Sequence record: PV357169.1
Length of the DNA stretch: 43,293 nt
Reading direction: 5' to 3' (one strand)
DNA from: a phage
The notes beneath the pieces were generated by a model that ran no database searches, was not told where the DNA came from, and saw nothing but the letters and a program-made list of their open reading frames with translations. The translations under genes were made by a program, and so were the position numbers. This document shows, piece after piece, positions 21,276 through 37,353 of this stretch; the first letter of the stretch is position 1; the number at the start of each line of letters is the position of its first letter.

Positions 21276-21719
21276 ATGAAGTTAAAACACACTAGTAAAA
21301 CACCCAATACTCACTCACTAAAAGTTCTGCATAAGCACGATGATATTAGAGAAGCAGTGAGGGCTCTGCACGAACTTGGTCACGGCATTAGTCGGGGCCT
21401 TACCACAGAGCAACACTATTGGAGAGTACTAAAAAGTATACTGGGTAAACAGTATATACTAGGAGTCTATGACTCCCGGGGCGACTTAGTAGGTGCTGTC
21501 AGTTACTACCCAGAAGCTGTAGAGGACTGCCATTACGTAGAGCCTGTGTTGTACACAGACTTCTTCGTATTGAAACCAGGAAACAGTGAGGCAATGCTTG
21601 TAGTTATGAAGGGTCTGCAAGCAATCGCTAAGTGTATGCGAGCTGGGCGCATCGCCATTAGTCGCAATACATCGGATAATACTTACAAAACAACTTACCA
21701 TTTAGTGAGGTCAGCATGA
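21276..21719 (+). CDS. Hypothetical protein (147 aa)
   Basis: First ORF after the RNA polymerase. Confidence 0.6.
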   Translation: MKLKHTSKTPNTHSLKVLHKHDDIREAVRALHELGHGISRGLTTEQHYWRVLKSILGKQYILGVYDSRGDLVGAVSYYPEAVEDCHYVEPVLYTDFFVLKPGNSEAMLVVMKGLQAIAKCMRAGRIAISRNTSDNTYKTTYHLVRSA

Positions 21720-26383: not shown

Positions 26384-27478
26384 ATGGCACAATCATTAGA
26401 AGGCACCATTCAGAGTTTGCTCCAGGGTGTGTCCCAGCAGATTCCAAGAGAGCGCCAGCCCGGGCAACTTGGGGCTCAACTGAACATGCTCAGTGACCCG
26501 GTATCCGGAATACGTAGACGACCCCCAGCAGAGATTGTATGGGAGAGTAGTATCGACAATCCGGACCTAGACTCCCTGTATACAGAATACGTTGAGCGTG
26601 GTTCCGACGGTAGGCACCTGCTGATTAACACCAGTAACGGTAATTGGTGGCTATTGTCCAAGGATGGCAAATCCATTGTAAACAGCGGGAACGACCCGTA
26701 CTTCGTAACAACGGTAGGGCAGACCTCTATCCAGACTGCGAGTATTGCTGGGTTGACCTACATCCTGAATACAGAGATGGCTCCGAATGCAACTGTGGAC
26801 AACACTGGTCGAATTGACCCGAGCACCACGGGATTCTTCTACATCAAGACAGTGGCCTTCCAGAAGCGCTGGGAGGTTACTGTATCCTGGACAGGTGGTT
26901 CCGTATCAGGTTATTACAACGCCCCTGATGCAAGTCACGGCGAATCCGCAGAGTGGGTTTCCGCGCCGTATGTAGTTAGGGCCTTAATCGACGGGGATCC
27001 TAATGGTCAGGGTATAGGCTCAGCTATTACGGCGGCTGGTGGAAGTATAAGCCGTTTCGAGGGGTATATGTATATATCCGGACTGCCTAATCTCGTAGTT
27101 AGTACATCTGCTGGAGACACCTACGCCGTGGCATCTGGGCAGAGTAGGGTTCATCAAGAACAGGACCTACCTGCACAGCTACCAGCACAGGCTCACGGTA
27201 CGATGTGCCAAGTGGGTACAGCTTCAGCTGAGACAGCGTGGTATCAGTTCGACTATAATTCCCGCACCTGGTCAGAGGTTGGGGCCTACGGTAGCATCTC
27301 CAAAATTACTAACATGCCCCGGGAACTGGCATCGGATGATAACATCATTGCTCGTGAATGGGAGGGGCGTCTTGCTGGGAACGACGAAAACAACCAGGAC
27401 CCTGGGTTTATTGAGAATGGCTACATTACAGGTATAGCAGCATTCCAGGCCGTCTGGTGCTGCTTAGTGGTAGTGTAG
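26384..27478 (+). CDS. Tail tubular protein B, N-terminal fragment (frameshifted gene)
   Basis: 364-aa ORF that ends in an implausible tail (AVWCCLVVV); continues in the -1 frame from ~27415. Confidence 0.6.
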   Translation: MAQSLEGTIQSLLQGVSQQIPRERQPGQLGAQLNMLSDPVSGIRRRPPAEIVWESSIDNPDLDSLYTEYVERGSDGRHLLINTSNGNWWLLSKDGKSIVNSGNDPYFVTTVGQTSIQTASIAGLTYILNTEMAPNATVDNTGRIDPSTTGFFYIKTVAFQKRWEVTVSWTGGSVSGYYNAPDASHGESAEWVSAPYVVRALIDGDPNGQGIGSAITAAGGSISRFEGYMYISGLPNLVVSTSAGDTYAVASGQSRVHQEQDLPAQLPAQAHGTMCQVGTASAETAWYQFDYNSRTWSEVGAYGSISKITNMPRELASDDNIIAREWEGRLAGNDENNQDPGFIENGYITGIAAFQAVWCCLVVV

Positions 27479-28761
27479 TGGACATGTCAGCATCTGGGCT
27501 GTATCAGCGATTCTATCGCTCTACAGTAACCTCTCTGCTGGATACAGACCGTATCAGCATTAGCTCGGCATCTGCTCAGGATTCCGTGTACCGTACAGCT
27601 ATACAATTCAACCGAGACTTGGTTCTGTTTGCAAATAGCATGCAGGCTGTAGTGCCTGGGTCAGTAGTGCTTACTCCAACTAACGCCAGTATTAGCATCA
27701 CTAGCACCTACGAATGTGACAGCCGAGTAACGCCAGTAATGGCTGGGCAGACTGTGATTTACCCGAACAAGCGCAACAGCAGCTACGCGGGTATTCTGGA
27801 GCTTATCCCATCCCCGTATACTGCCTCACAATATACTACGCAGGATGCGACTGTGCACCTCCCTCGGTATATCCATGGGAGGGTGCTGCAGATGCAAAAC
27901 TCCAGTGTCACTAATATGGCGTTTGTGCGTATGTCCGGACAGCGCAAGAGTCTGCTGGTATATGAGTTCATGTGGGGTGGACAGGATGGTGGTAAGGTGC
28001 AATCAGCCTGGCACCAATGGACGTTCCCGTATAATATTCTGAGCGTGCAGGCACTTGAAGATGAAGTGTTCCTGTACCTGCAAGGGCCAAGCCCGGGCAA
28101 TAAACTTCTGATTTTGTCTATGGACCCACGCGAGGGGTACAACCTCGGCAGTGAGTATACAGATGCGTACTCGGACTTGCAGACGCAAGTTACTGTAAGC
28201 GCCGGAGTGTTAACAGTGCCCGCAGTATTGCGCCCAGCGGGTTGGGCGGATACGTACAAAGAGGACCTAATCCTCACGTACCCAGCCAACAATCCTATGG
28301 GACCTACCGAAGTAGGGTTACAGGATATTGCCGGTACAAATCAGCTCAGAGTCGTACGTGGTGTTCCTGATGGGCAGTATATCCTGGGTCGCAGGTACAA
28401 TAGCGCATTCACTCTGACTACCCCAGTACTTCGGGATCAGAATGATAAGTTAGTTGGTAGCGGGCACGTGCGTTTGTTGCGTCTGGATGTAGCAGTACGT
28501 AACTCCGGGCACTTTGATGTGCATGTAACGGATACGCCCCGGGATGTTGACTGGAGTGGAGAACTCACAGGTATCTTGATGAACTCCAAGGAGCTGACGT
28601 TGGGGCAGACCTTGCGTATGGACTTGGCTACCATCACGGTGCCGTGCCGCACTAACGCGGATACTACGGAAATCACTTTGTATACCAAGGGCTCCCAGGA
28701 GCTGAACGTGCTGGATATCTCTTATATCCTGCGCTACAACCAACGCAGACGGAGGATTTAA
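27457..28761 (+). CDS. Tail tubular protein B, C-terminal fragment
   Basis: 434-aa ORF; the two fragments sum to ~798 aa, about the size of T7 gp12. Confidence 0.6.
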   Translation: MLLSGSVVDMSASGLYQRFYRSTVTSLLDTDRISISSASAQDSVYRTAIQFNRDLVLFANSMQAVVPGSVVLTPTNASISITSTYECDSRVTPVMAGQTVIYPNKRNSSYAGILELIPSPYTASQYTTQDATVHLPRYIHGRVLQMQNSSVTNMAFVRMSGQRKSLLVYEFMWGGQDGGKVQSAWHQWTFPYNILSVQALEDEVFLYLQGPSPGNKLLILSMDPREGYNLGSEYTDAYSDLQTQVTVSAGVLTVPAVLRPAGWADTYKEDLILTYPANNPMGPTEVGLQDIAGTNQLRVVRGVPDGQYILGRRYNSAFTLTTPVLRDQNDKLVGSGHVRLLRLDVAVRNSGHFDVHVTDTPRDVDWSGELTGILMNSKELTLGQTLRMDLATITVPCRTNADTTEITLYTKGSQELNVLDISYILRYNQRRRRI

Positions 28762-28762
28762 T

Positions 28763-29350
28763 ATGGGTATGTGGTGGGCCGCCGCCGCCCTAGCAGGCTC
28801 TAAACTGCTTGGTGCTGGGGCGCAGATTGAGGTTGCCAAAGCACGTAACAAAGCAGTAATTCAGCAGACAGCGAAGCAGCTTAACGATATTGCGCTGCAA
28901 CGTGCCCAGTCCAGGGACCGGACTGAGGTTGCTCTGTTCAACATTCAACAGCAGAAGCTGCAAGCACAGAGTCAGGTAGGCCTGCAAGCTGCTGCGTCCG
29001 GTACTATGGGGGCGTCTGTTAAGGATGCCGTAGCAACCGTGAATACAGTAGCAGATCGTCAGATATCTGGAATCAGGTCCCAGCAGGCCACTCAGGAAGA
29101 GGGCTACCGAATGATGGTGGATAAGGCCGTGGATAGCGGATTAGCCAATATGGACCTGGAGAGCGGATACGATAAGATGTTTAATGCCGCCTTGGGCTTT
29201 GGTGGGCAACTGCTCGGGCAATACATAGGGAATGAACTATCCAAGAGCACTCCCGATAGTACCGACACCGCCCCGGAGCCTGCAGCAGATAATTCGTTCT
29301 TGTATGACCTATGGGGCAGCAAGGGTAATAGCAAAGTACACACCTGGTAA
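28763..29350 (+). CDS. Internal virion protein A (putative)
   Basis: Position after the tail tubular genes; N-terminal hydrophobic segment. Confidence 0.5.
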   Translation: MGMWWAAAALAGSKLLGAGAQIEVAKARNKAVIQQTAKQLNDIALQRAQSRDRTEVALFNIQQQKLQAQSQVGLQAAASGTMGASVKDAVATVNTVADRQISGIRSQQATQEEGYRMMVDKAVDSGLANMDLESGYDKMFNAALGFGGQLLGQYIGNELSKSTPDSTDTAPEPAADNSFLYDLWGSKGNSKVHTW

Positions 29351-29365: not shown

Positions 29366-32050
29366 ATGCCTGTAATTCAACCCAACCGACAGGGTCTAAA
29401 TATCGGCGGCGTGCAATTGCAGGCCAACGAGGTTAACTTGCCCTCTACAGTCGGGGATGTAGTAGTAGACACGTCCAAAGCAAACCGCCTTGCAGCACTC
29501 TCTGGCTTCGTCCAGGACTTCGGTATAGGGTTTGATGCAGCAGTAAAAGAAAATGCAGCAGCAGCCACTGTGCGAGGTGCTATGGATGCCCAGGGTGCAG
29601 TAGATGCAATGGCCTCTAAAGATGAGGCAGTACAGAAGCAGAATCTATTTGTACGAGAAGCCTACCAGGATGGTTATGTATCTGCTGCGGCCTACGATTC
29701 TCTAGCTAAGTGGCGCACGGATAGTATTGCTCGCGCTAAGAAGGCAGCTGAGGCTGGGCTGACCGATGAAGAGTTCCACCAGCAGGAGCAAGAGCATGTC
29801 CAGGCTATGTCTGACAAGCTCGGTATGTATCTTCCGGATATGTCCAAACAGTCCGCTACAGCGGTACTGCAGCAGCTCCGTGCAACCAGCTTAGCGAATT
29901 ATACGGCCTTCCAGAAGGGTCGCGCAGAGTTTGCGGTAGTACAAGCAGATCGTGCGCTGGACCGTGGGCTTAGCTCCTCTGTTGATGAGTTCTATCAGCG
30001 CCTGAATGCTGGGCAGGGTGCAGCAGCACAGATGTCAATTAAGACAGGACTGGATAGCATCCTAGCGGCTGAACACCTGGATAAATCTAAGAAGCTAGAC
30101 CGGGCCAAGCAGTACCTGGTTAGTGTAGCACAGCAGACCCAGGACCCTTTAATCATCAACCAGTTGCAGGAGATGGCAACGAAAGAGCTGGGCGTCAATG
30201 CTGTAGACGTCAATGCTGCCTTGTATCAGGAATTTAAACGTGCCGGTACCCAGGTTGAGACTCAGGCACGTTTTGAAATCTCCGATGCAATCCAGTCTCT
30301 TGAGGGGCAATCCCCGGAAGAGCAAGAGCAGACGATGCAGCATATCCGCAACCGTGTGATTGAGTTATCTGTTACGGATGTGTTAAGCCCTGGTACCAGT
30401 ATGGAATTCTGGAACAAGGCCCAGACTATCCGGGAGAAGACTGCGGATACACAGGCTTTACGTATCGCCATCACAGGGAACCTCCCTACATCCACCTTAG
30501 CTGGGATGTTCAAAGGGGATTTGGATAAGGCCCGGTCACAGGTACTCAAAAACTTCCCAGACACTCCAGAGGGGAACTTGCAGCTACTGGCTTATGGTAG
30601 CAACAGTAAGGATGCGTGGGCCGTTAATGAGGCGCACAAGCGCATGTCCTCGGATATGGCGCGTACCCTCACTACACTGGACCAGTTAGGTGAGGATGGG
30701 CAGGTGTCCAAGGAGAATGTCAATAGCATCAACCTGTGGGCCCAAGCATATAGTACCAGTACCGACTTAGGTAAGATGGCTCTGCTGTCTGAAGTCCCAT
30801 CTGAGTGGCAGGGGGTGGTTCAGAAGGCCATTGCACAGAACCCCAATAACGCCAGCAACACCATTCTGGACGACCTGCGTCGCCAGGCCCGTAACAAGGC
30901 TAGCGGGCGCTACAACAACATCAGTAGCAACCCCACAGACAAAATGGTGGATCCGAGTCACACTGCTAATTGGTTCAGCTTCTTCGGCACAGCGGACGCA
31001 CAGCGCCAAGAGGCGCGCGCCGCTATGGAGGAAGAATATCGGTACGTATATAATCACAACCCAGAGGCGTTAGTTGGTAAGGATCCTGATGATATCAACA
31101 CGATGCTCAAAGGTAACATCCAAGCCCGTAAGCTGGAGTTAGATATCTCTGGAGCCCCTCGGCACGTGTATCTGCCAGCTGGGACTTCTATTCAATCCCT
31201 AATGGGGGATTATCGAGGAGACCAGGAGCAGTTCAAGTCGTCTCTGCAGCAGCAGATTCAGAGCCAGGTCAACGCCTTAACTAACCCTAGCAACCTTGAA
31301 CGAGTAGTAGTGCAGGCTGCCACAGCGGGTAACTCAGCGCAGAACATGACTGTTACTATATTCGACAAGAAGGGAACCTTCCAGACTATGTCGGTGAATC
31401 TGCGTGACGTTCAAACCACTGCGCAAGATGCGTACAACAAGGCGCTAGCTGGTGAGATGAAGATTGGCAGCGAGCAAGTAGGTGTCCGTCCAGCTACCTT
31501 CTACGACCATGACAACGGCAGAGTTGTAAGTACGCAGGTCAATGGACGTAATGGGGTAGGTGTAGAGCCATCGCTATTCAGTGAGATTCTTGCCAACACC
31601 ATGCAGTTCGAGGGATTCCGAGAAGGCAAAGGTAATGGTAGCGTAGGCTTCGGTTTGCACAACAACTCCGGTATGCCTGTTCCGAAGAAAGTTACTATTG
31701 ACGACGGTATTAGTATTCTGAAATCCTCCCTGGAGAAGCAGTACATCCCGAATGTGAACAAACAGTTGCGCGGACAGGGCTTGAATGCCTCTGCGGATGC
31801 TATGAAGGTTATGGTTGACTTGAACTATCACGGTGGTAACGGTAGTTCTGGCCCGGTAGCAGAGGCAGTGGCACAGGTACGTAAAGCTTCCAAGTCTCCG
31901 GTAGGGGCGTACCAGTACCCTGTATCTGAGGCTCAGGGTAAGGCTTGGCAAGCACTCCGTAATACTCCAGCTTACAAACAGGCACAGCCTAAACGTAAGA
32001 AATATCTGGAGCAAGGACTACGTAACTGGATGTTTGAGGTAACACACTAA
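29366..32050 (+). CDS. Internal virion protein B (T7 gp15-like, putative)
   Basis: 894-aa ORF in the conserved position. Confidence 0.55.
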   Translation: MPVIQPNRQGLNIGGVQLQANEVNLPSTVGDVVVDTSKANRLAALSGFVQDFGIGFDAAVKENAAAATVRGAMDAQGAVDAMASKDEAVQKQNLFVREAYQDGYVSAAAYDSLAKWRTDSIARAKKAAEAGLTDEEFHQQEQEHVQAMSDKLGMYLPDMSKQSATAVLQQLRATSLANYTAFQKGRAEFAVVQADRALDRGLSSSVDEFYQRLNAGQGAAAQMSIKTGLDSILAAEHLDKSKKLDRAKQYLVSVAQQTQDPLIINQLQEMATKELGVNAVDVNAALYQEFKRAGTQVETQARFEISDAIQSLEGQSPEEQEQTMQHIRNRVIELSVTDVLSPGTSMEFWNKAQTIREKTADTQALRIAITGNLPTSTLAGMFKGDLDKARSQVLKNFPDTPEGNLQLLAYGSNSKDAWAVNEAHKRMSSDMARTLTTLDQLGEDGQVSKENVNSINLWAQAYSTSTDLGKMALLSEVPSEWQGVVQKAIAQNPNNASNTILDDLRRQARNKASGRYNNISSNPTDKMVDPSHTANWFSFFGTADAQRQEARAAMEEEYRYVYNHNPEALVGKDPDDINTMLKGNIQARKLELDISGAPRHVYLPAGTSIQSLMGDYRGDQEQFKSSLQQQIQSQVNALTNPSNLERVVVQAATAGNSAQNMTVTIFDKKGTFQTMSVNLRDVQTTAQDAYNKALAGEMKIGSEQVGVRPATFYDHDNGRVVSTQVNGRNGVGVEPSLFSEILANTMQFEGFREGKGNGSVGFGLHNNSGMPVPKKVTIDDGISILKSSLEKQYIPNVNKQLRGQGLNASADAMKVMVDLNYHGGNGSSGPVAEAVAQVRKASKSPVGAYQYPVSEAQGKAWQALRNTPAYKQAQPKRKKYLEQGLRNWMFEVTH

Positions 32051-32099: not shown

Positions 32100-35000
32100 A
32101 TGGCTCAGTTTCTGAACCAAGAACCGAATCCACAGGAAAAGGATTCTGCTAAGGGCGCAACACTTAAACCTGCGCCTGCGCGTATAGATTGGAACGATGC
32201 GGGTGATGACGGCTTGAATGCACTGGAGCGTGCCTCCTTACTAGCACAGGCCAAGACTCCTGCTACTACAGCTGCAGAGAGCTTTGCGTCTGGTATGGGT
32301 AATAGCATCATAGCTGCAGCTATCCGTAAAGCCTCCGCCCCGGCATTTGTCCCAGAGCAGGGTTTTGATGCTAAGAAGCAATTAAGCACTGATTCACGGG
32401 CTAAACTCTATACCCCTAATCAAGAAGAAATTGATTACTTACATGGAGCAGTGTCTCTGGAGGACTATAACTACCGCATACAGCAGATGCTTGATCAGCG
32501 TCATCGCGATCGCTTAATGGCTGACAACACAATAGCTGGGTTCGCTGGGGCTATAGCAGGTGACTCTCCATTTCTCCTAGCTCCGATGTCTGCGGCAGGT
32601 ATCGCTGGTCGGGCTGGCTTAGCAGTGCGCACTGCTATCCGCGCAGCGGATGTAGGTACGGCTGTTTATGCACAGGACCAACTGGGTCAGTCTGCGGCAG
32701 TTACTGCTCTTGTAGCAGGTGTAGCTGGTCTAGACCAACTCTGGGATATCCGTAGGGCTGTACGCGCATCTACGGCAGCTGCGTCAACTACAAGAGCTGC
32801 TGAGACCACCCCTAATGCTGCTACGGCAACTTCCCGCACTGCTCCGGAAGAAGTAGCAACAAGTCGCAATGTGGTAGATTCCCCTGCTGGCCCGTCTAAT
32901 GCGCAAGCTGATAGTGCTGCGGTTGCTAAAACCACTGACGGTTTACCAGAAGGTTTAAGCTTGAACGTGCTGGATGATGTAGAGCACCACGCTTACTCTG
33001 GTGTACGCGTACCTGGTATAGAGGTAGAAGTAAATCGCGGAGATAAGTTGGTTGGTGTTGTGCAGGCTTATCGTGTAGGTGATGATTTACAAGTAGCACA
33101 TGCCTGGGTTGATAAATCCCTGCGTGGCAAGGGAGTAGGTGCGAGCATGTACAAAGCACTAGTTAAGCGCGCTACTGATGCAGGATATGGTAACTTGTTG
33201 TCTGATAACTCAGTAACTGCGTCTGCTCAGCAGATGTGGCGCAAACTTGGTGCTACCAAAACCAAAGATTTTAAAGAACTAACGGACGGTATTGAAGGGC
33301 AGCGTTATGCAGTCTCTGCGGATGAAAAGTCCCCACTCTTTACTCTAGACTTGAAACGTCCTGTGTTTGACCCAGATGCGCCTACAACTCGTACAGCGAG
33401 GGATGTTAATGTTACAGGAGTAGGAGAGGGGGAAGAAATCCTCACCAAAGCACTGGATGAACCGATAAAAGTCCTTAGAAACAACACTACTACTGTTAAC
33501 ATTAAAGCGCAGGACGTAGTTCGATTCCTAAAGACCTCTGAGCATTTATCTAAGGGTCAGAAGGCTATCCTGGACACCCTGGGCGATGCAGTACAGGACA
33601 TTGATTTTAAGTTGGTGGCAGGCTCTTCTAACCGTAGCCACTACAGCTTTCCACTGGTATCAAGAACTGATAGGGGTTTTGTATCTTTACGTGCCCCTAA
33701 GAAAGCTAATGGAAGTACTTGGACAACTGTAGGCGACGCCCTACGTGCCATGGACGCCGATACTAGTCGAGTAGCAGTGCACGAGCTGATTCACGCTGCC
33801 ACTACTAGGGCCCTTAAGCGGAATCCTGAAATTGCTAGTAAGCTGGAAGAGGTGCGCGCTGCAATAGCAGCTGATTCAACCCTCAGTGATAAGCTTAAGT
33901 ACTACGCAAGCGATGTGCACGAGATGCTAGCTGGACTAGGTGATAGCCCTGAGTGGGTGGAGTATCTCTCTAAAACTCAATCTCCTACTGGTAGGAGTAT
34001 GCTCCGCCAGATTGGTGAGTACATCATGAATGCCCTGGGGATTCGCACCAAGGGGTCCGCTCTGGAGGATGTTCTGGACGCGTACGAGGATGCTGTCAAG
34101 TGGACAGCAAAGGACTACGCAGAACAAGTTCAGAGCTTCCGCAGCGAATCTTTCCAGGACCTAGCGGATACATCGGTTAAGAATGAGGCCCTGAAAGCTC
34201 AGACTATGATGGACACGGCCAAGCGTAAGTTAGCCACTATGTTCTCCCTGTATGATAACATCGCAGAGGGTAGCGAGGACCTGGCACGCTTACTGGTATC
34301 TGATGCTACTGCTGTAGGCGGTCGTAAACCGTCTGTGGTGGACTTCAAGCGTAACCTTACGTTGGAGATGGATGCTAGTGCCAGTGTAGTTGAGGACGCT
34401 ATACTTGGTGCCCTCAAGGCCAAAGGTGTAGGTTTCATAGACCGCTTCTTCCACCGTAGCAACTTCCGAGCAGCTCGTGCTGACTTAGAAGATCGCTTGG
34501 GCCGTTACCTGGACTCTGCGTACAGCGCTGAGGTTAATGGACGCCCTGTACCTCTGCCGGACTCTGACTTGGTTCCGCTAGTAGAGGCGTACCGCAACTC
34601 CGGCTGGGCCAGTAAGTGGCACGATCACATGACTGCTGCCGGACTGGTGGATGACGGTACTCTGATTAAATCGGACTATTACTTCCCTCGCCAGTACAGC
34701 TACGATAAGATGCGCCAAGGTATTGCAAATGGTCGCTCCCTGGATAATTATCGGGATCTGTTCCGTCAGGCATTGCGTGACGTGTACCCGTCTATGGAAC
34801 CCGAAGTTGTCCAGCGCGTTGCTAAGGAGATGGTTGACGGTATCTATAACGGACGCTCCTCGGCTTCTGGTCCTATGTGGAAGCAACTCATCAATGGTAT
34901 GGGTAATGATGAAGTAGTTATGGCCATGCGTAATGCTGGCGTAGACGAGAGTGCAATCCAGAGTTTCTTGGCAGGTAATGTCCGAGAATCTGGCGCTACC

Positions 35001-36362
35001 TCGCCTGCTAAGAACCTCCGTCAACGTACCCGCTTCAACATGGACAAAGAGTACATCGTAGACGGTCAGGTTATGCGCATGCAGGATCTGATGGATACTG
35101 ATGTAGCCAAGGTAATGCACGGTTACACCAACCGCATGTCAGGTCGTGTAGGTATGGCTTACGCCGGAGTCTCTGACCTAAAAACACTAGAGACGATGAT
35201 TAACGAGTCCAAACACGCTCTGGCTGATTCCGGTAAGTGGGAGAAGACCGTTAATGACACCATCGACTTTATCTTAGGTGGGGCACCAGCCGACGCCGGT
35301 CAAATGCCGGACCTGCTCCGTGCAGCCGGTAACATGGCCAACGCTACCATGCTTAAGAACTCTGGGTTGTACCAGCTTACTGACACCGCTCTAGCGCTGA
35401 AAGAGTTTGGTATGTCCCGAGTACTCCGCAGTATGCGTGAGCAGCCCTGGTTTAAAGAGGGTGCCGTAGCTATTCGCACTCCGGATATGGCTAGTCGTCT
35501 GGATGCAATCCTACGTGGTAGTATCCAGAAGGAGATGCGCTTCCGCTGGTTGAATACCTACGCAGACGATAACTTGGACCTGACCCGTCAGGCTTCCTGG
35601 TTTAATGTCACCCAGAACGTTGGACAGGCTGCGCGTCACGTCAACGGTATGAGTATGGTACATCGACTGCAGGTTAACCTTAACTCAGGTATTGTAGCGG
35701 ATGAGCTCCAGCAGATGTTCAAGGGCGACGCTGAGGCGTTTAAGCGTCTGGAGCGTTTCGGGCTTACCCGCGACGTTGCAGACCGTGCCATTGCTGCTAA
35801 CAAGGCTAATCCTGGTGCTATGTTCCAGCCGGACCTGCAAATGCAGATTGAGGTGGTAGGTACCAGAATGATGGACTACCTGGTGCAGCAAGTACGTACC
35901 GGTGAGACCTCGCACTTCGCACAGTTTAACCCTATTGGCAAGATAATTGTAGGTTACCAGAGCTTCGCCCTGGCTGCCACCAACAAGATTCTACGTAGGG
36001 AGCTGAGCGACGCTGGATGGATTGGCGTAGCCCATATTATGGCGTACCAGTTCCCGTTAATGCTACTGGCTACTATGGCTAAGCATGGTATGGATGGGAA
36101 GGACGTAGACACCCAGAAGCTAATCAGTGAATCTGTGATGGGTATGAGCGCCATTGGTGGGATCTCGCTTCTGCAGGATATCTTCACTGGGGACTCACCG
36201 CGTCACTCCTTGGCGTCTATGGGTTACGTTACAGGGCTGTTGGGTGCGCTGCAGGATCTGGCTACTGGGGATATGGATATCCAGACCTTCACTAAGCAGG
36301 TCCCGTTAATCCAGGAATTCGCTCCTACGCGAGCTATAATCAATAACTTCGGAGACGATTAA
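32100..36362 (+). CDS. Internal virion protein C (T7 gp16-like ejection protein, 1420 aa) with GNAT-like and HExxH segments
   Basis: Largest ORF, in the conserved position; Ala-rich N-terminus; RGKGVG segment (~aa 345) and HELIH (~aa 561). Confidence 0.6.
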   Translation: MAQFLNQEPNPQEKDSAKGATLKPAPARIDWNDAGDDGLNALERASLLAQAKTPATTAAESFASGMGNSIIAAAIRKASAPAFVPEQGFDAKKQLSTDSRAKLYTPNQEEIDYLHGAVSLEDYNYRIQQMLDQRHRDRLMADNTIAGFAGAIAGDSPFLLAPMSAAGIAGRAGLAVRTAIRAADVGTAVYAQDQLGQSAAVTALVAGVAGLDQLWDIRRAVRASTAAASTTRAAETTPNAATATSRTAPEEVATSRNVVDSPAGPSNAQADSAAVAKTTDGLPEGLSLNVLDDVEHHAYSGVRVPGIEVEVNRGDKLVGVVQAYRVGDDLQVAHAWVDKSLRGKGVGASMYKALVKRATDAGYGNLLSDNSVTASAQQMWRKLGATKTKDFKELTDGIEGQRYAVSADEKSPLFTLDLKRPVFDPDAPTTRTARDVNVTGVGEGEEILTKALDEPIKVLRNNTTTVNIKAQDVVRFLKTSEHLSKGQKAILDTLGDAVQDIDFKLVAGSSNRSHYSFPLVSRTDRGFVSLRAPKKANGSTWTTVGDALRAMDADTSRVAVHELIHAATTRALKRNPEIASKLEEVRAAIAADSTLSDKLKYYASDVHEMLAGLGDSPEWVEYLSKTQSPTGRSMLRQIGEYIMNALGIRTKGSALEDVLDAYEDAVKWTAKDYAEQVQSFRSESFQDLADTSVKNEALKAQTMMDTAKRKLATMFSLYDNIAEGSEDLARLLVSDATAVGGRKPSVVDFKRNLTLEMDASASVVEDAILGALKAKGVGFIDRFFHRSNFRAARADLEDRLGRYLDSAYSAEVNGRPVPLPDSDLVPLVEAYRNSGWASKWHDHMTAAGLVDDGTLIKSDYYFPRQYSYDKMRQGIANGRSLDNYRDLFRQALRDVYPSMEPEVVQRVAKEMVDGIYNGRSSASGPMWKQLINGMGNDEVVMAMRNAGVDESAIQSFLAGNVRESGATSPAKNLRQRTRFNMDKEYIVDGQVMRMQDLMDTDVAKVMHGYTNRMSGRVGMAYAGVSDLKTLETMINESKHALADSGKWEKTVNDTIDFILGGAPADAGQMPDLLRAAGNMANATMLKNSGLYQLTDTALALKEFGMSRVLRSMREQPWFKEGAVAIRTPDMASRLDAILRGSIQKEMRFRWLNTYADDNLDLTRQASWFNVTQNVGQAARHVNGMSMVHRLQVNLNSGIVADELQQMFKGDAEAFKRLERFGLTRDVADRAIAANKANPGAMFQPDLQMQIEVVGTRMMDYLVQQVRTGETSHFAQFNPIGKIIVGYQSFALAATNKILRRELSDAGWIGVAHIMAYQFPLMLLATMAKHGMDGKDVDTQKLISESVMGMSAIGGISLLQDIFTGDSPRHSLASMGYVTGLLGALQDLATGDMDIQTFTKQVPLIQEFAPTRAIINNFGDD
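33408..33424 (+). promoter_or_regulatory. Copy 3 of conserved motif ATGTTACAGGAGTAGGA, inside the internal virion protein C gene
   Basis: Exact 17-mer; encodes NVTGVG in frame. Confidence 0.35.
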
Positions 36363-36363
36363 T

Positions 36364-37353
36364 ATGGCATTCAGCTGGCAAGAACAAATCAAGCCAGCTG
36401 GTACCCAGGATATCCAGTGCGATATTGAGTATTTGGACAAGTCCTATATTCATGTATACCTAGACGGTGCGGAAACCACTGGGTACACCTGGACCAGCGC
36501 TACTAATATAAGATTAAATTCGGCCCTAACTGCGAACACTACAGTGCTTCTCATTCGTAAGACTGAGCGCGAGTATCTGTATATTGAGTTTGCTAGCGGC
36601 TCTCCGTTCATCGAGGTGAACGTAGATTCTCAAAATACACAGTTCTTGCACTTGGCGCAAGAGCTTGTGGAAGGCAGGGCTATCCCCGGATTCTACGGGG
36701 ATATAAGCATGAACGGGTACCGCATCACGAATGTATCAGACCCGGTGGACTTGCAAGATGCTGCTACCAAGCACTACGTAGACTCTCGTATTGATGCAGA
36801 GCACGCCGCTTGGGTATCCGCTGATGCCACCATCAAATCCTACGTTGTTTCTGAGGACGCCAGGCTAGACACCCGCATCGACACAGAACGCGCCGCTAGG
36901 AAGGCTGCGGACGATGCCTTGAGTATGCGTACCTCTGCTCTGGAAAACACCTTTATAAGTGGTGTAGAAACAGTAAGCTACCCGTGGAGCACGGTGCTTA
37001 CAGAGGATACAGACGAGGTAACTCCAGGGCTAAAGTTTACTAAGGCTATAGTAGAACTTAATGGTGTTGGGCAGATTCGTGGCTACAGTTTTGAGATTGT
37101 AGATAACACCATAATGTTTGCCGAGACTCTCCCTGCAGGAACGATCGTAGCTGCTCGATTAGGTGCTGATGTAACTGCAGGGGACGGTTTCGCTACACAA
37201 GCATCCGTAGACCACTTAGCCAACTCCTTAGGGGCTTTGGCGTACCTAGGCAAAGCAGAGGCTGTGGAGGATGCAACCGGTGCTGAGGACGTGGTGAATC
37301 AACTAAATGCATTACTAGCAGCACTACGTGCCAGCGGAGTAGTAACATCCTAA
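36364..37353 (+). CDS. Tail fibre protein with T7 gp17-like N-terminal adaptor domain
   Basis: N-terminus loosely resembles the recalled T7 gp17 N-terminus; position before the terminase genes. Confidence 0.6.
   Translation: MAFSWQEQIKPAGTQDIQCDIEYLDKSYIHVYLDGAETTGYTWTSATNIRLNSALTANTTVLLIRKTEREYLYIEFASGSPFIEVNVDSQNTQFLHLAQELVEGRAIPGFYGDISMNGYRITNVSDPVDLQDAATKHYVDSRIDAEHAAWVSADATIKSYVVSEDARLDTRIDTERAARKAADDALSMRTSALENTFISGVETVSYPWSTVLTEDTDEVTPGLKFTKAIVELNGVGQIRGYSFEIVDNTIMFAETLPAGTIVAARLGADVTAGDGFATQASVDHLANSLGALAYLGKAEAVEDATGAEDVVNQLNALLAALRASGVVTS

Follow-up and report, generated by a model that had tools for sequence, protein, structure and literature searches.

The ejection protein encoded in sequence record PV357169.1 (43,293 nt, the whole stretch that we analysed, called the window here) contains a genuine GNAT fold under purifying selection at amino acids (aa) 283–420. 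Downstream of it lies a HExxH domain that, judging from conservation and homology, is probably a zincin-like metallopeptidase. The window is the complete genome (43.3 kb) of a KP34-like podophage (Autographiviridae, Slopekvirinae, Drulisvirus). We lean towards regarding the protein as one that combines a GNAT acyltransferase effector module with a zincin-like metallopeptidase module, which would make it a small 'polyvalent' protein.

The identity of the 1420-aa open reading frame (ORF) was established using three lines of evidence. It was assigned to PHROG 342 with an E-value of 1.6e-234. Homologues with solved structures were the very close 1239-aa 'gp10' of a Drulisvirus-type phage (23sg_S, E-value 0), the 'tetrameric ejection protein' gp48 of PhiM1 (8vb2_A, E-value 4.7e-89), and a 1337-aa phiKMV-type internal virion protein (9sfn_G). 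The gene follows gp14-like and gp15-like genes, and the tail fibre gene starts at position 36364, immediately past its stop codon. Based on the solved homologues, the PHROG assignment and the gene order, the ORF was identified as the analogue of T7 gp16, in agreement with the original prediction, made from the sequence alone, of an ejection-protein homologue. In T7 nomenclature it corresponds to internal virion protein D, while the letter C is used in some records. At the DNA level, the ORF was 94.6% identical to its counterpart in Escherichia phage ZH5 and 91.6% to that in Shigella phage SFN6B.

A minimal GNAT domain on a rare insert

A GNAT-like pattern had been proposed at residues ~285–390 of the ejection protein, a range that includes the segment VDKSLRGKGVGASMYKALVKRA (aa 337–358, nt 33108–33173). 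Two Pfam profiles matched this part of the protein above their cut-offs: PF00583 (Acetyltransf_1; 30.1 bits vs. a cut-off of 20.7, aa 311–384, with the match beginning at profile position 38 of 116) and PF13673 (Acetyltransf_10; 26.2 bits vs. 23.6). The AlphaFold2 model of the domain, computed with the family alignment as input, had a predicted local distance difference test score (pLDDT) of 85.6 and a predicted template modelling score (pTM) of 0.82. It consists of four consecutive strands, helix alpha3, strand beta5, helix alpha4, and two more strands. A Foldseek search of the PDB with this model returned 311 matches at an E-value ≤ 0.001, and the top 50 were all GNATs (probability 1.00, template modelling score 0.46–0.63). 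Among the viral structures in BFVD, the top matches were mostly acetyltransferases, including one annotated 'phage head morphogenesis domain' and several proteins longer than 1000 aa. The GNAT fold was thus recovered by both profile search and structure prediction, and the pattern was not a chance match.

Relatives of the domain were collected in several ways. A word-indexed protein search yielded no matches with either the GNAT segment or the GNAT alignment, and five fragments with aa 421–720. Since this type of search was nearly blind to the family, we turned to an exhaustive search of representative sequences and to tblastn against phage genomes. The exhaustive HMMER search with aa 275–425 against 1.84 billion representatives gave 63 matches at an E-value ≤ 0.001. 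When aligned, these formed a distinct family with the signature LQV..(R/Q)GKGxG..xY...A...GY...SDxSVSxxAxxVWxxLG...sPvFxL. Across 24 family members, which shared 21–33% identity with the window domain, the positions of motif A were largely preserved: R or Q at position 1 (23/24), G at position 4 (22/24), and G or A at position 6 (23/24). Residues Y351, G362, S368, and A376 were invariant across the family, and D369 was nearly so.

Several of the relatives are virion proteins. P0021 (1446 aa; L016, 160–4500) is a divergent PHROG 342 protein with a GNAT domain at aa 292–431, the same position as in the window protein. The two proteins aligned across aa 117–457, so that the layout of an N-terminal region followed by the GNAT domain is common to both. 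No HExxH was present anywhere in P0021, and a charged, Lys/Glu-rich stretch follows its GNAT domain in place of the peptidase-like domain; hence, the GNAT and HExxH modules vary independently. P0049 and P0029 are PHROG 6651 internal virion proteins with the GNAT domain at approximately aa 301–389, and P0030 is a PHROG 22602 virion structural protein with a domain of the same family. The gp16-like protein of Xylella phage Cota combines an SLT domain with a weak GNAT match below the Pfam cut-off. Other relatives adjoin the polyvalent-protein domains LPD38 (above the Pfam cut-off) and LPD39 (below it). The remainder included solo proteins of 130–200 aa, tandem arrays, and fusions with ParB, mCpol, and NUDIX, which have architectures like those of conflict systems.

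Four of these proteins, P0012 (1090 aa), P0008, P0018, and P0059, are GNAT tandem arrays joined to minimal CRISPR polymerase (mCpol), ParB-like, and NUDIX domains. A further GNAT match was located in the 309-kb jumbo phage Tunturi_5 of Tunturiibacter (PP885688.1, 264288–264590), under a gene annotated as MutT/NUDIX hydrolase.

In the window protein, the GNAT domain forms part of a 196-residue insert, together with a linker rich in Ala, Thr, Ser, and Pro (Table 1). The insert is present in SFN6B and myPSH1235; the ejection protein of Minorna (1232 aa) has eight unrelated residues in its place. The region preceding the insert (aa 1–224) shared 84–90% aa identity with SFN6B, Minorna, and myPSH1235 at a ratio of nonsynonymous to synonymous substitution rates (dN/dS) of 0.06–0.10, and it could also be aligned in P0021 and P0013, which are divergent GNAT-bearing proteins. 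The linker shared just 46–49% aa identity when the window or SFN6B was compared with myPSH1235, with a dN/dS of 0.37–0.57. The dN/dS of the GNAT domain was 0.035–0.094, meaning that the domain is as strongly constrained as the rest of the protein while the linker drifts. The N-terminal ~280 aa had been described as Ala-rich low complexity. They are Ala-rich (22% Ala), but not uniformly of low complexity: aa 1–224 are conserved, and only aa 225–282 form a drifting linker.

The insert is rare. At least 80% of the ejection protein gene was covered in 219 of 251 related records, and among the records listed, all but five, representing three phages, aligned in two pieces with 86% coverage. When phage genomes were searched by tblastn with aa 274–426, copies of the GNAT segment were found only in ZH5, SFN6B, myPSH1235, and KpV48 (85–99% identity), i.e., in four of the approximately 250 related phages in the collection. 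The GC content of the GNAT domain was 46.9% vs. 51.7% in the gene region that follows the insert downstream, and its synonymous divergence from myPSH1235 was 0.71, below the 0.93–1.58 of its flanks. Both values hint at modular exchange.

The HExxH domain and its surroundings

HELIH, noted in the original prediction at residues 561–565, is the sole HExxH in the 1420-aa protein, with ~0.014 occurrences expected from composition. We gathered homologues of aa 421–720 from phage genomes and aligned eleven sequences, down to 22% identity, taking in KP34, AltoGao, Peggy, phiKDA1, PA28, PM16, a Vibrio phage, Erwinia phage Micant, a Ralstonia phage, and, from the N4-like Acinetobacter phage nACB1, its virion RNA polymerase (vRNAP). 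Residues H561, E562, H565, A566, T568, E608, and A611 were invariant in all eleven, so HELIH is more than a chance occurrence. The order of the conserved elements, HExxHAxT followed some 40–55 residues on by xE(M/F/L)(L/I)A, is the gluzincin arrangement. Predicted helices span aa 553–574, which hold the HExxH, and aa 606–612, which hold E608. In the solved proteins, HELIH aligned with HEAAH (PhiM1 gp48, 8vb2), HEAVH (phiKMV-type 9sfn_G), and HELVH (N4 vRNAP, 11fw). Invariance of both the HExxH and a distant Glu at 22–36% identity is typical of an active site rather than of packing residues.

The domain is shared with N4-like vRNAPs. BLASTP aligned aa 527–629 of the window protein (33678..33986) with aa 2008–2140 of the nACB1 vRNAP (L018) at an E-value of 4e-9. 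A profile built from tetrameric ejection proteins (TEPs) only scored 57.1 bits on the nACB1 vRNAP, compared with a maximum of 7.2 bits in 2000 shuffles. Given these two results, we regard homology to a Schitoviridae vRNAP as solid. The first PDB profile match, to the N4 vRNAP (E-value 3.6e-6), was obtained with the nACB1 row in the alignment. For N4, the HEXXH region of the vRNAP (aa 2130–2448) was previously unified with zincin-like metallopeptidases by HHpred, with a match to lethal factor, and the zincin core was described as a three-stranded sheet with an N-terminal helix, the HEXXH helix, and a Glu-bearing helix (Iyer et al. 2017, PMC5512222). The predicted order of elements in the window protein (helix, strands, HExxH helix, Glu helix) fits this core. 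In the 2026 paper on the N4 structure, the conserved HExxH was placed in subdomain C1 and was assigned no function (PMC13434306).

The structure model of aa 421–720 was poor (pLDDT 49.8) because the alignment held only six close sequences, and the fold search based on it counts as weak evidence. Two of the eleven homologues had a single sub-threshold match each to a zincin family, Peptidase_M90 (E-value 0.0013) and DUF3267 (E-value 0.16). Between the ejection protein and the C-terminal region of the vRNAP, no similarity was detected beyond the HExxH domain.

As a separate observation, the HExxH domain looks like a mobile module that the largest ejected protein of one podophage family has exchanged with that of another; according to a recent paper, the two families lack detectable sequence similarity.

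Table 1. Features of the ejection protein gene and of the genes preceding it; positions are those of the window
Feature	Position	Strand	Description	Evidence or remarks
Ejection protein ORF	32100..36362	+	1420 aa, tetrameric ejection protein, T7 gp16 analogue, 'internal core protein'	Translation, PHROG 342, solved homologues, gene order
Conserved N-terminal region	32100..32771	+	aa 1–224	Gly/Ala-rich hydrophobic helices at aa ~145–176 and 199–217
Insert	32772..33359	+	aa 225–420, 196 residues, linker plus GNAT domain	Alignment with relatives
Low-complexity linker	32772..32945	+	aa 225–282, Ala/Thr/Ser/Pro-rich	Lowest sequence entropy within the N-terminal 460 aa
GNAT-fold acyltransferase domain	32946..33359	+	aa 283–420, minimal, without helices alpha1/alpha2	Pfam, AlphaFold2 model, fold matches, dN/dS
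RGKGVG	33123..33140	+	aa 342–347, GNAT motif A acetyl-CoA pyrophosphate-binding loop, (R/Q)xxGx(G/A)	
HExxH domain	33417..34169	+	aa ~440–690 (boundaries approximate), probably zincin-like metallopeptidase	
HELIH	33780..33794	+	aa 561–565, proposed zinc ligands H561 and H565, proposed catalytic base E562	
E608	33921..33923	+	Invariant Glu on downstream helix, candidate third zinc ligand	Role inferred
C-terminal alpha-helical body	34200..36359	+	aa 701–1420	Aligns with 23sg_S, 8vb2_A, and 9sfn_G; dN/dS 0.04–0.06
gp14-like gene	28763..29350		Upstream of the ejection protein gene	Pfam T7_gp14
gp15-like gene	29366..32050		894 aa, directly precedes the ejection protein gene	

The remaining part of the ejection protein, its C-terminal body, contains hydrophobic helices at aa ~1305–1360, seen as hydropathy peaks. 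Among the neighbouring genes, the gp15-like protein belongs to PHROG 2083 ('internal virion lysozyme motif'), yet it had no Pfam lysozyme or transglycosylase match, the only match being DUF5713 at an E-value of 0.11. In SFN6B, an HNH endonuclease gene lies between the ejection protein and tail fibre genes (L002 7265..7753); no such gene is present at this place in the window. The tail nozzle (T7 gp12-like) gene, 26384..28761, consists of two overlapping ORFs in different frames. ORF 26384..27478 corresponds to positions 4–355 of Pfam Phage_nozzle, and ORF 27457..28761 to positions 360–794. Across nt 27300–27650, the closest relatives (ZH5, PSK2, and others) have one additional base compared with the window, which points to a 1-nt deletion in the window near the junction (27457–27478). 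The split stems from an error in sequencing or assembly, or else an essential gene carries a real frameshift.

Proposed mechanism and alternative explanations

In the mechanism that we propose, the protein would have four parts: a conserved N-terminal region that is probably membrane-active, an optional GNAT domain on a flexible linker, an HExxH-plus-Glu module, and an extensive helical body. Homology with PhiM1 gp48 and T7 gp16 suggests that each virion holds about four copies at the top of its internal core, which would exit the capsid before the DNA does. Inside the cell, the GNAT module would draw on cytoplasmic acetyl-CoA and acylate a component of the host, a protein being the likeliest target. 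It would thereby support host takeover or counter-defence as an accessory effector that acts early. It appears to be dispensable, as most relatives lack it. The metallopeptidase module would bind zinc via H561, H565, and E608 and may, while ejection proceeds, cleave either its own protein or one belonging to the envelope or the host.

A number of points weigh against this proposal. Helices alpha1 and alpha2, which give the acceptor site of canonical GNATs its shape, are absent from the GNAT model. In GNATs, a Tyr in helix alpha4 is often the general acid; the corresponding position is a Trp in the window protein, and W, Y, and F occupy it in 18, five, and one of the 24 relatives, respectively. 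Acetyl-CoA is absent from the periplasm, and therefore the GNAT domain could be catalytic only after arriving in the cytoplasm, or else within the producer cell. As for the second module, no Pfam peptidase family matched the HExxH segment of the window protein. Of the suggestion that this segment is of the zincin type, the part concerning motif conservation and homology held up, while a Pfam peptidase match failed to appear and the model of the region was the poor one described above. When the nACB1 (Schitoviridae) row was left out of the profile, N4 vRNAP was no longer reached, which is why the TEP-only profile was tested directly on nACB1 with shuffled controls; the step from the window protein to N4 itself, for which the zincin assignment was published, is therefore transitive and runs through nACB1. 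The N4 vRNAP is reported to be packaged unprocessed (PMC5512222), so that even the best-studied protein of this kind provides no established example of autoprocessing. Finally, our literature search found no assay of activity, cofactor binding or target for any homologue.

The missing helices and the Trp would also fit a GNAT module that is non-catalytic and serves the structure or assembly of the internal core, in a way comparable to T7 gp13, fused to the ejection protein because Drulisviruses are without a separate gp13 gene. Hardies et al. reported acetyltransferase matches in HHpred for T7 internal virion protein A (gp13) and for genes syntenic with it (PMC4819975). In a T7-like Pseudomonas phage, the place of gp13 is taken by an acetyltransferase gene of 145 aa, and in the window no gene lies between the nozzle gene, which ends at 28761, and the gp14-like gene, which starts at 28763. 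However, equating the insert with T7 gp13 had to be rejected: BLASTP gave an E-value of 0.67, hhalign with the GNAT family profile gave a probability of 0.9%, and PF11090, the gp13 family, matched T7 gp13 but had no match in the window protein. Moreover, the approximately 250 related phages without the insert are also without a separate gp13 gene at this place, so the insert cannot be an essential core component. The acetyl-CoA pyrophosphate loop, in turn, is kept at 21–33% identity, which a purely structural role would not need. We consider such a role unlikely.

Another explanation concerns the HExxH domain, which might be muralytic ('endolysin-like'), a glycosidase or zinc murein peptidase that opens the periplasmic peptidoglycan for the tunnel and replaces the transglycosylase domain of T7 gp16. 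PHROG 342 and many GenBank records are labelled 'internal virion protein with endolysin domain' or 'peptidoglycan lytic exotransglycosylase', and in the PhiM1 paper, Asp268–Asp528 of gp48, which contains the aligned HEAAH, was named the endolysin/exotransglycosidase-like domain. A wall-opening activity in the internal core is expected from established T7 biology. With no SLT domain in the window protein, it would have to reside somewhere in the core, and a zinc enzyme requires no cytoplasmic cofactor. We found no SLT or lysozyme match when the whole ejection protein was searched against Pfam, when aa 421–720 were searched at E-values up to 10, or in the fold search with the poor model; given this lack of lysozyme or transglycosylase similarity, the 'endolysin' label of PHROG 342 and the PhiM1 naming are unsupported here. 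All in all, we judge a muralytic role to be rather doubtful.

It could also be argued that both features are functionless leftovers, the GNAT domain being a neutral passenger of recombination and the HExxH being kept for folding or packing of the core. The rarity of the insert would agree with this, as would the lack of processing of the N4 vRNAP, in which the region with the HExxH domain is required for encapsidation (PMC5512222). A neutral passenger is hard to reconcile with the low dN/dS of the GNAT domain next to a drifting linker and with a cofactor motif conserved family-wide, and the same applies to an HExxH and distant Glu that stay invariant among such divergent sequences. This makes the explanation highly improbable.

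Returning to delivery of an acyltransferase and a metallopeptidase by the ejection protein, a bolder version of it can be put forward tentatively. The unnamed minimal-GNAT family might be a capsid-delivered effector that was repeatedly inserted into unrelated podophage ejection proteins and polyvalent proteins and that acetylates a specific host target within seconds of infection. Candidate targets would include defence proteins, components of translation, and signalling nucleotides. If this were true, the few GNAT-bearing Drulisviruses would have a host-range or counter-defence advantage over their GNAT-less siblings.

Significance and relation to known systems

Part of what is described here was already known. 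The annotation of the SFN6B record includes 'cd04301: N-Acyltransferase superfamily', so the bare acyltransferase observation is not new. Both module types have been described in phage proteins delivered with DNA. The original prediction considered an acyltransferase or metallopeptidase delivered in this way to be unusual; its observation is confirmed and its interpretation partly supported, and, in view of those earlier descriptions, the result amounts to a good re-annotation rather than to a new kind of system. In our literature searches, no study dealt with the SFN6B-type insert, and none mentioned a metallopeptidase for T7-like ejection proteins. What is new is that the GNAT domain is a rare, selected insert of a recognisable family that recurs in virion proteins. 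Also new is that the 'endolysin' region of KP34-, PhiM1-, and phiKMV-type ejection proteins bears the invariant signature of a metallopeptidase and is homologous to the HExxH domain of N4-like vRNAPs.

The re-annotation shifts the experiments that would be sensible on the solved ejectosome structures towards seeking a metal and testing proteolysis. The distribution of the insert also provides a natural experiment, as near-identical therapeutic-type phages of Klebsiella, E. coli, and Shigella differ in having or lacking a well-folded, selected GNAT domain in a protein that enters before the DNA. Comparing GNAT-bearing with GNAT-less phages could reveal an injected host-modifying activity.

PhiM1 gp48, 9sfn_G, and the gp10 of 23sg belong to the same family as the window protein and share its gene order, and their HExxH domain and C-terminal body align with it. 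None of the three chains (8vb2_A, 9sfn_G, and 23sg_S) aligns with the GNAT insert. T7 gp16 occupies the same place in the gene order as the window protein, which, judging from its homology to PhiM1 gp48, would also share the role of T7 gp16 as the tetrameric top layer of the internal core that is ejected and builds the inner part of the DNA tunnel. Unlike the window protein, which had no SLT match, T7 gp16 has an N-terminal lytic transglycosylase domain. It contains one HExxH (HERLH, aa 559) in a context unlike HExxHAxT, and there was no phmmer sequence match between T7 gp16 and the window protein, both of which were compared against the P-set proteins only (the set to which P0021 belongs).

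The N4-like vRNAP resembles the window protein in its subdomain C1 (N4 gp50 aa 2124–2375, PDB 11fw), which has a homologous HExxHA(A/S/I)T helix and a downstream Glu helix. Each of the two is the largest ejected protein of its podophage, but the window protein has no RNA polymerase.

T4 Alt is an ADP-ribosyltransferase that is carried in the myovirus head and injected with the DNA. Together with Rac, it is likened to the window protein by description only, both illustrating the idea that a phage enzyme can alter proteins of the host as soon as infection begins. Rac, as it is cited in PMC10504331, is a phiKMV-type acetyltransferase that is expressed separately as an early, non-virion protein. 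At the site of Rac in phiKMV-type phages, after the RNA polymerase gene, the window has a 147-aa ORF (21276..21719) with no Pfam match.

Another close parallel is found in the polyvalent proteins of phages and conjugative elements, large proteins that travel with the invading DNA and combine several enzymatic modules (Iyer, Burroughs, Anand, de Souza & Aravind 2017, PMC5512222). Their commonest module is a zincin-like metallopeptidase with HExxH and Glu, GNATs of the RimI-like clade are among their protein-modifying modules, and two GNAT families were described in that study, the text of which makes no mention of T7, KP34 or phiKMV-type ejection proteins. The window protein resembles polyvalent proteins in its probable metallopeptidase and its GNAT module and in having GNAT relatives that adjoin LPD38 and LPD39. 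It differs from them in that it has only two catalytic-type modules, set within a structural, tunnel-forming protein. Current ideas are not overturned by these results; rather, the 2017 concept of polyvalent proteins is extended to T7-like ejectosomes.

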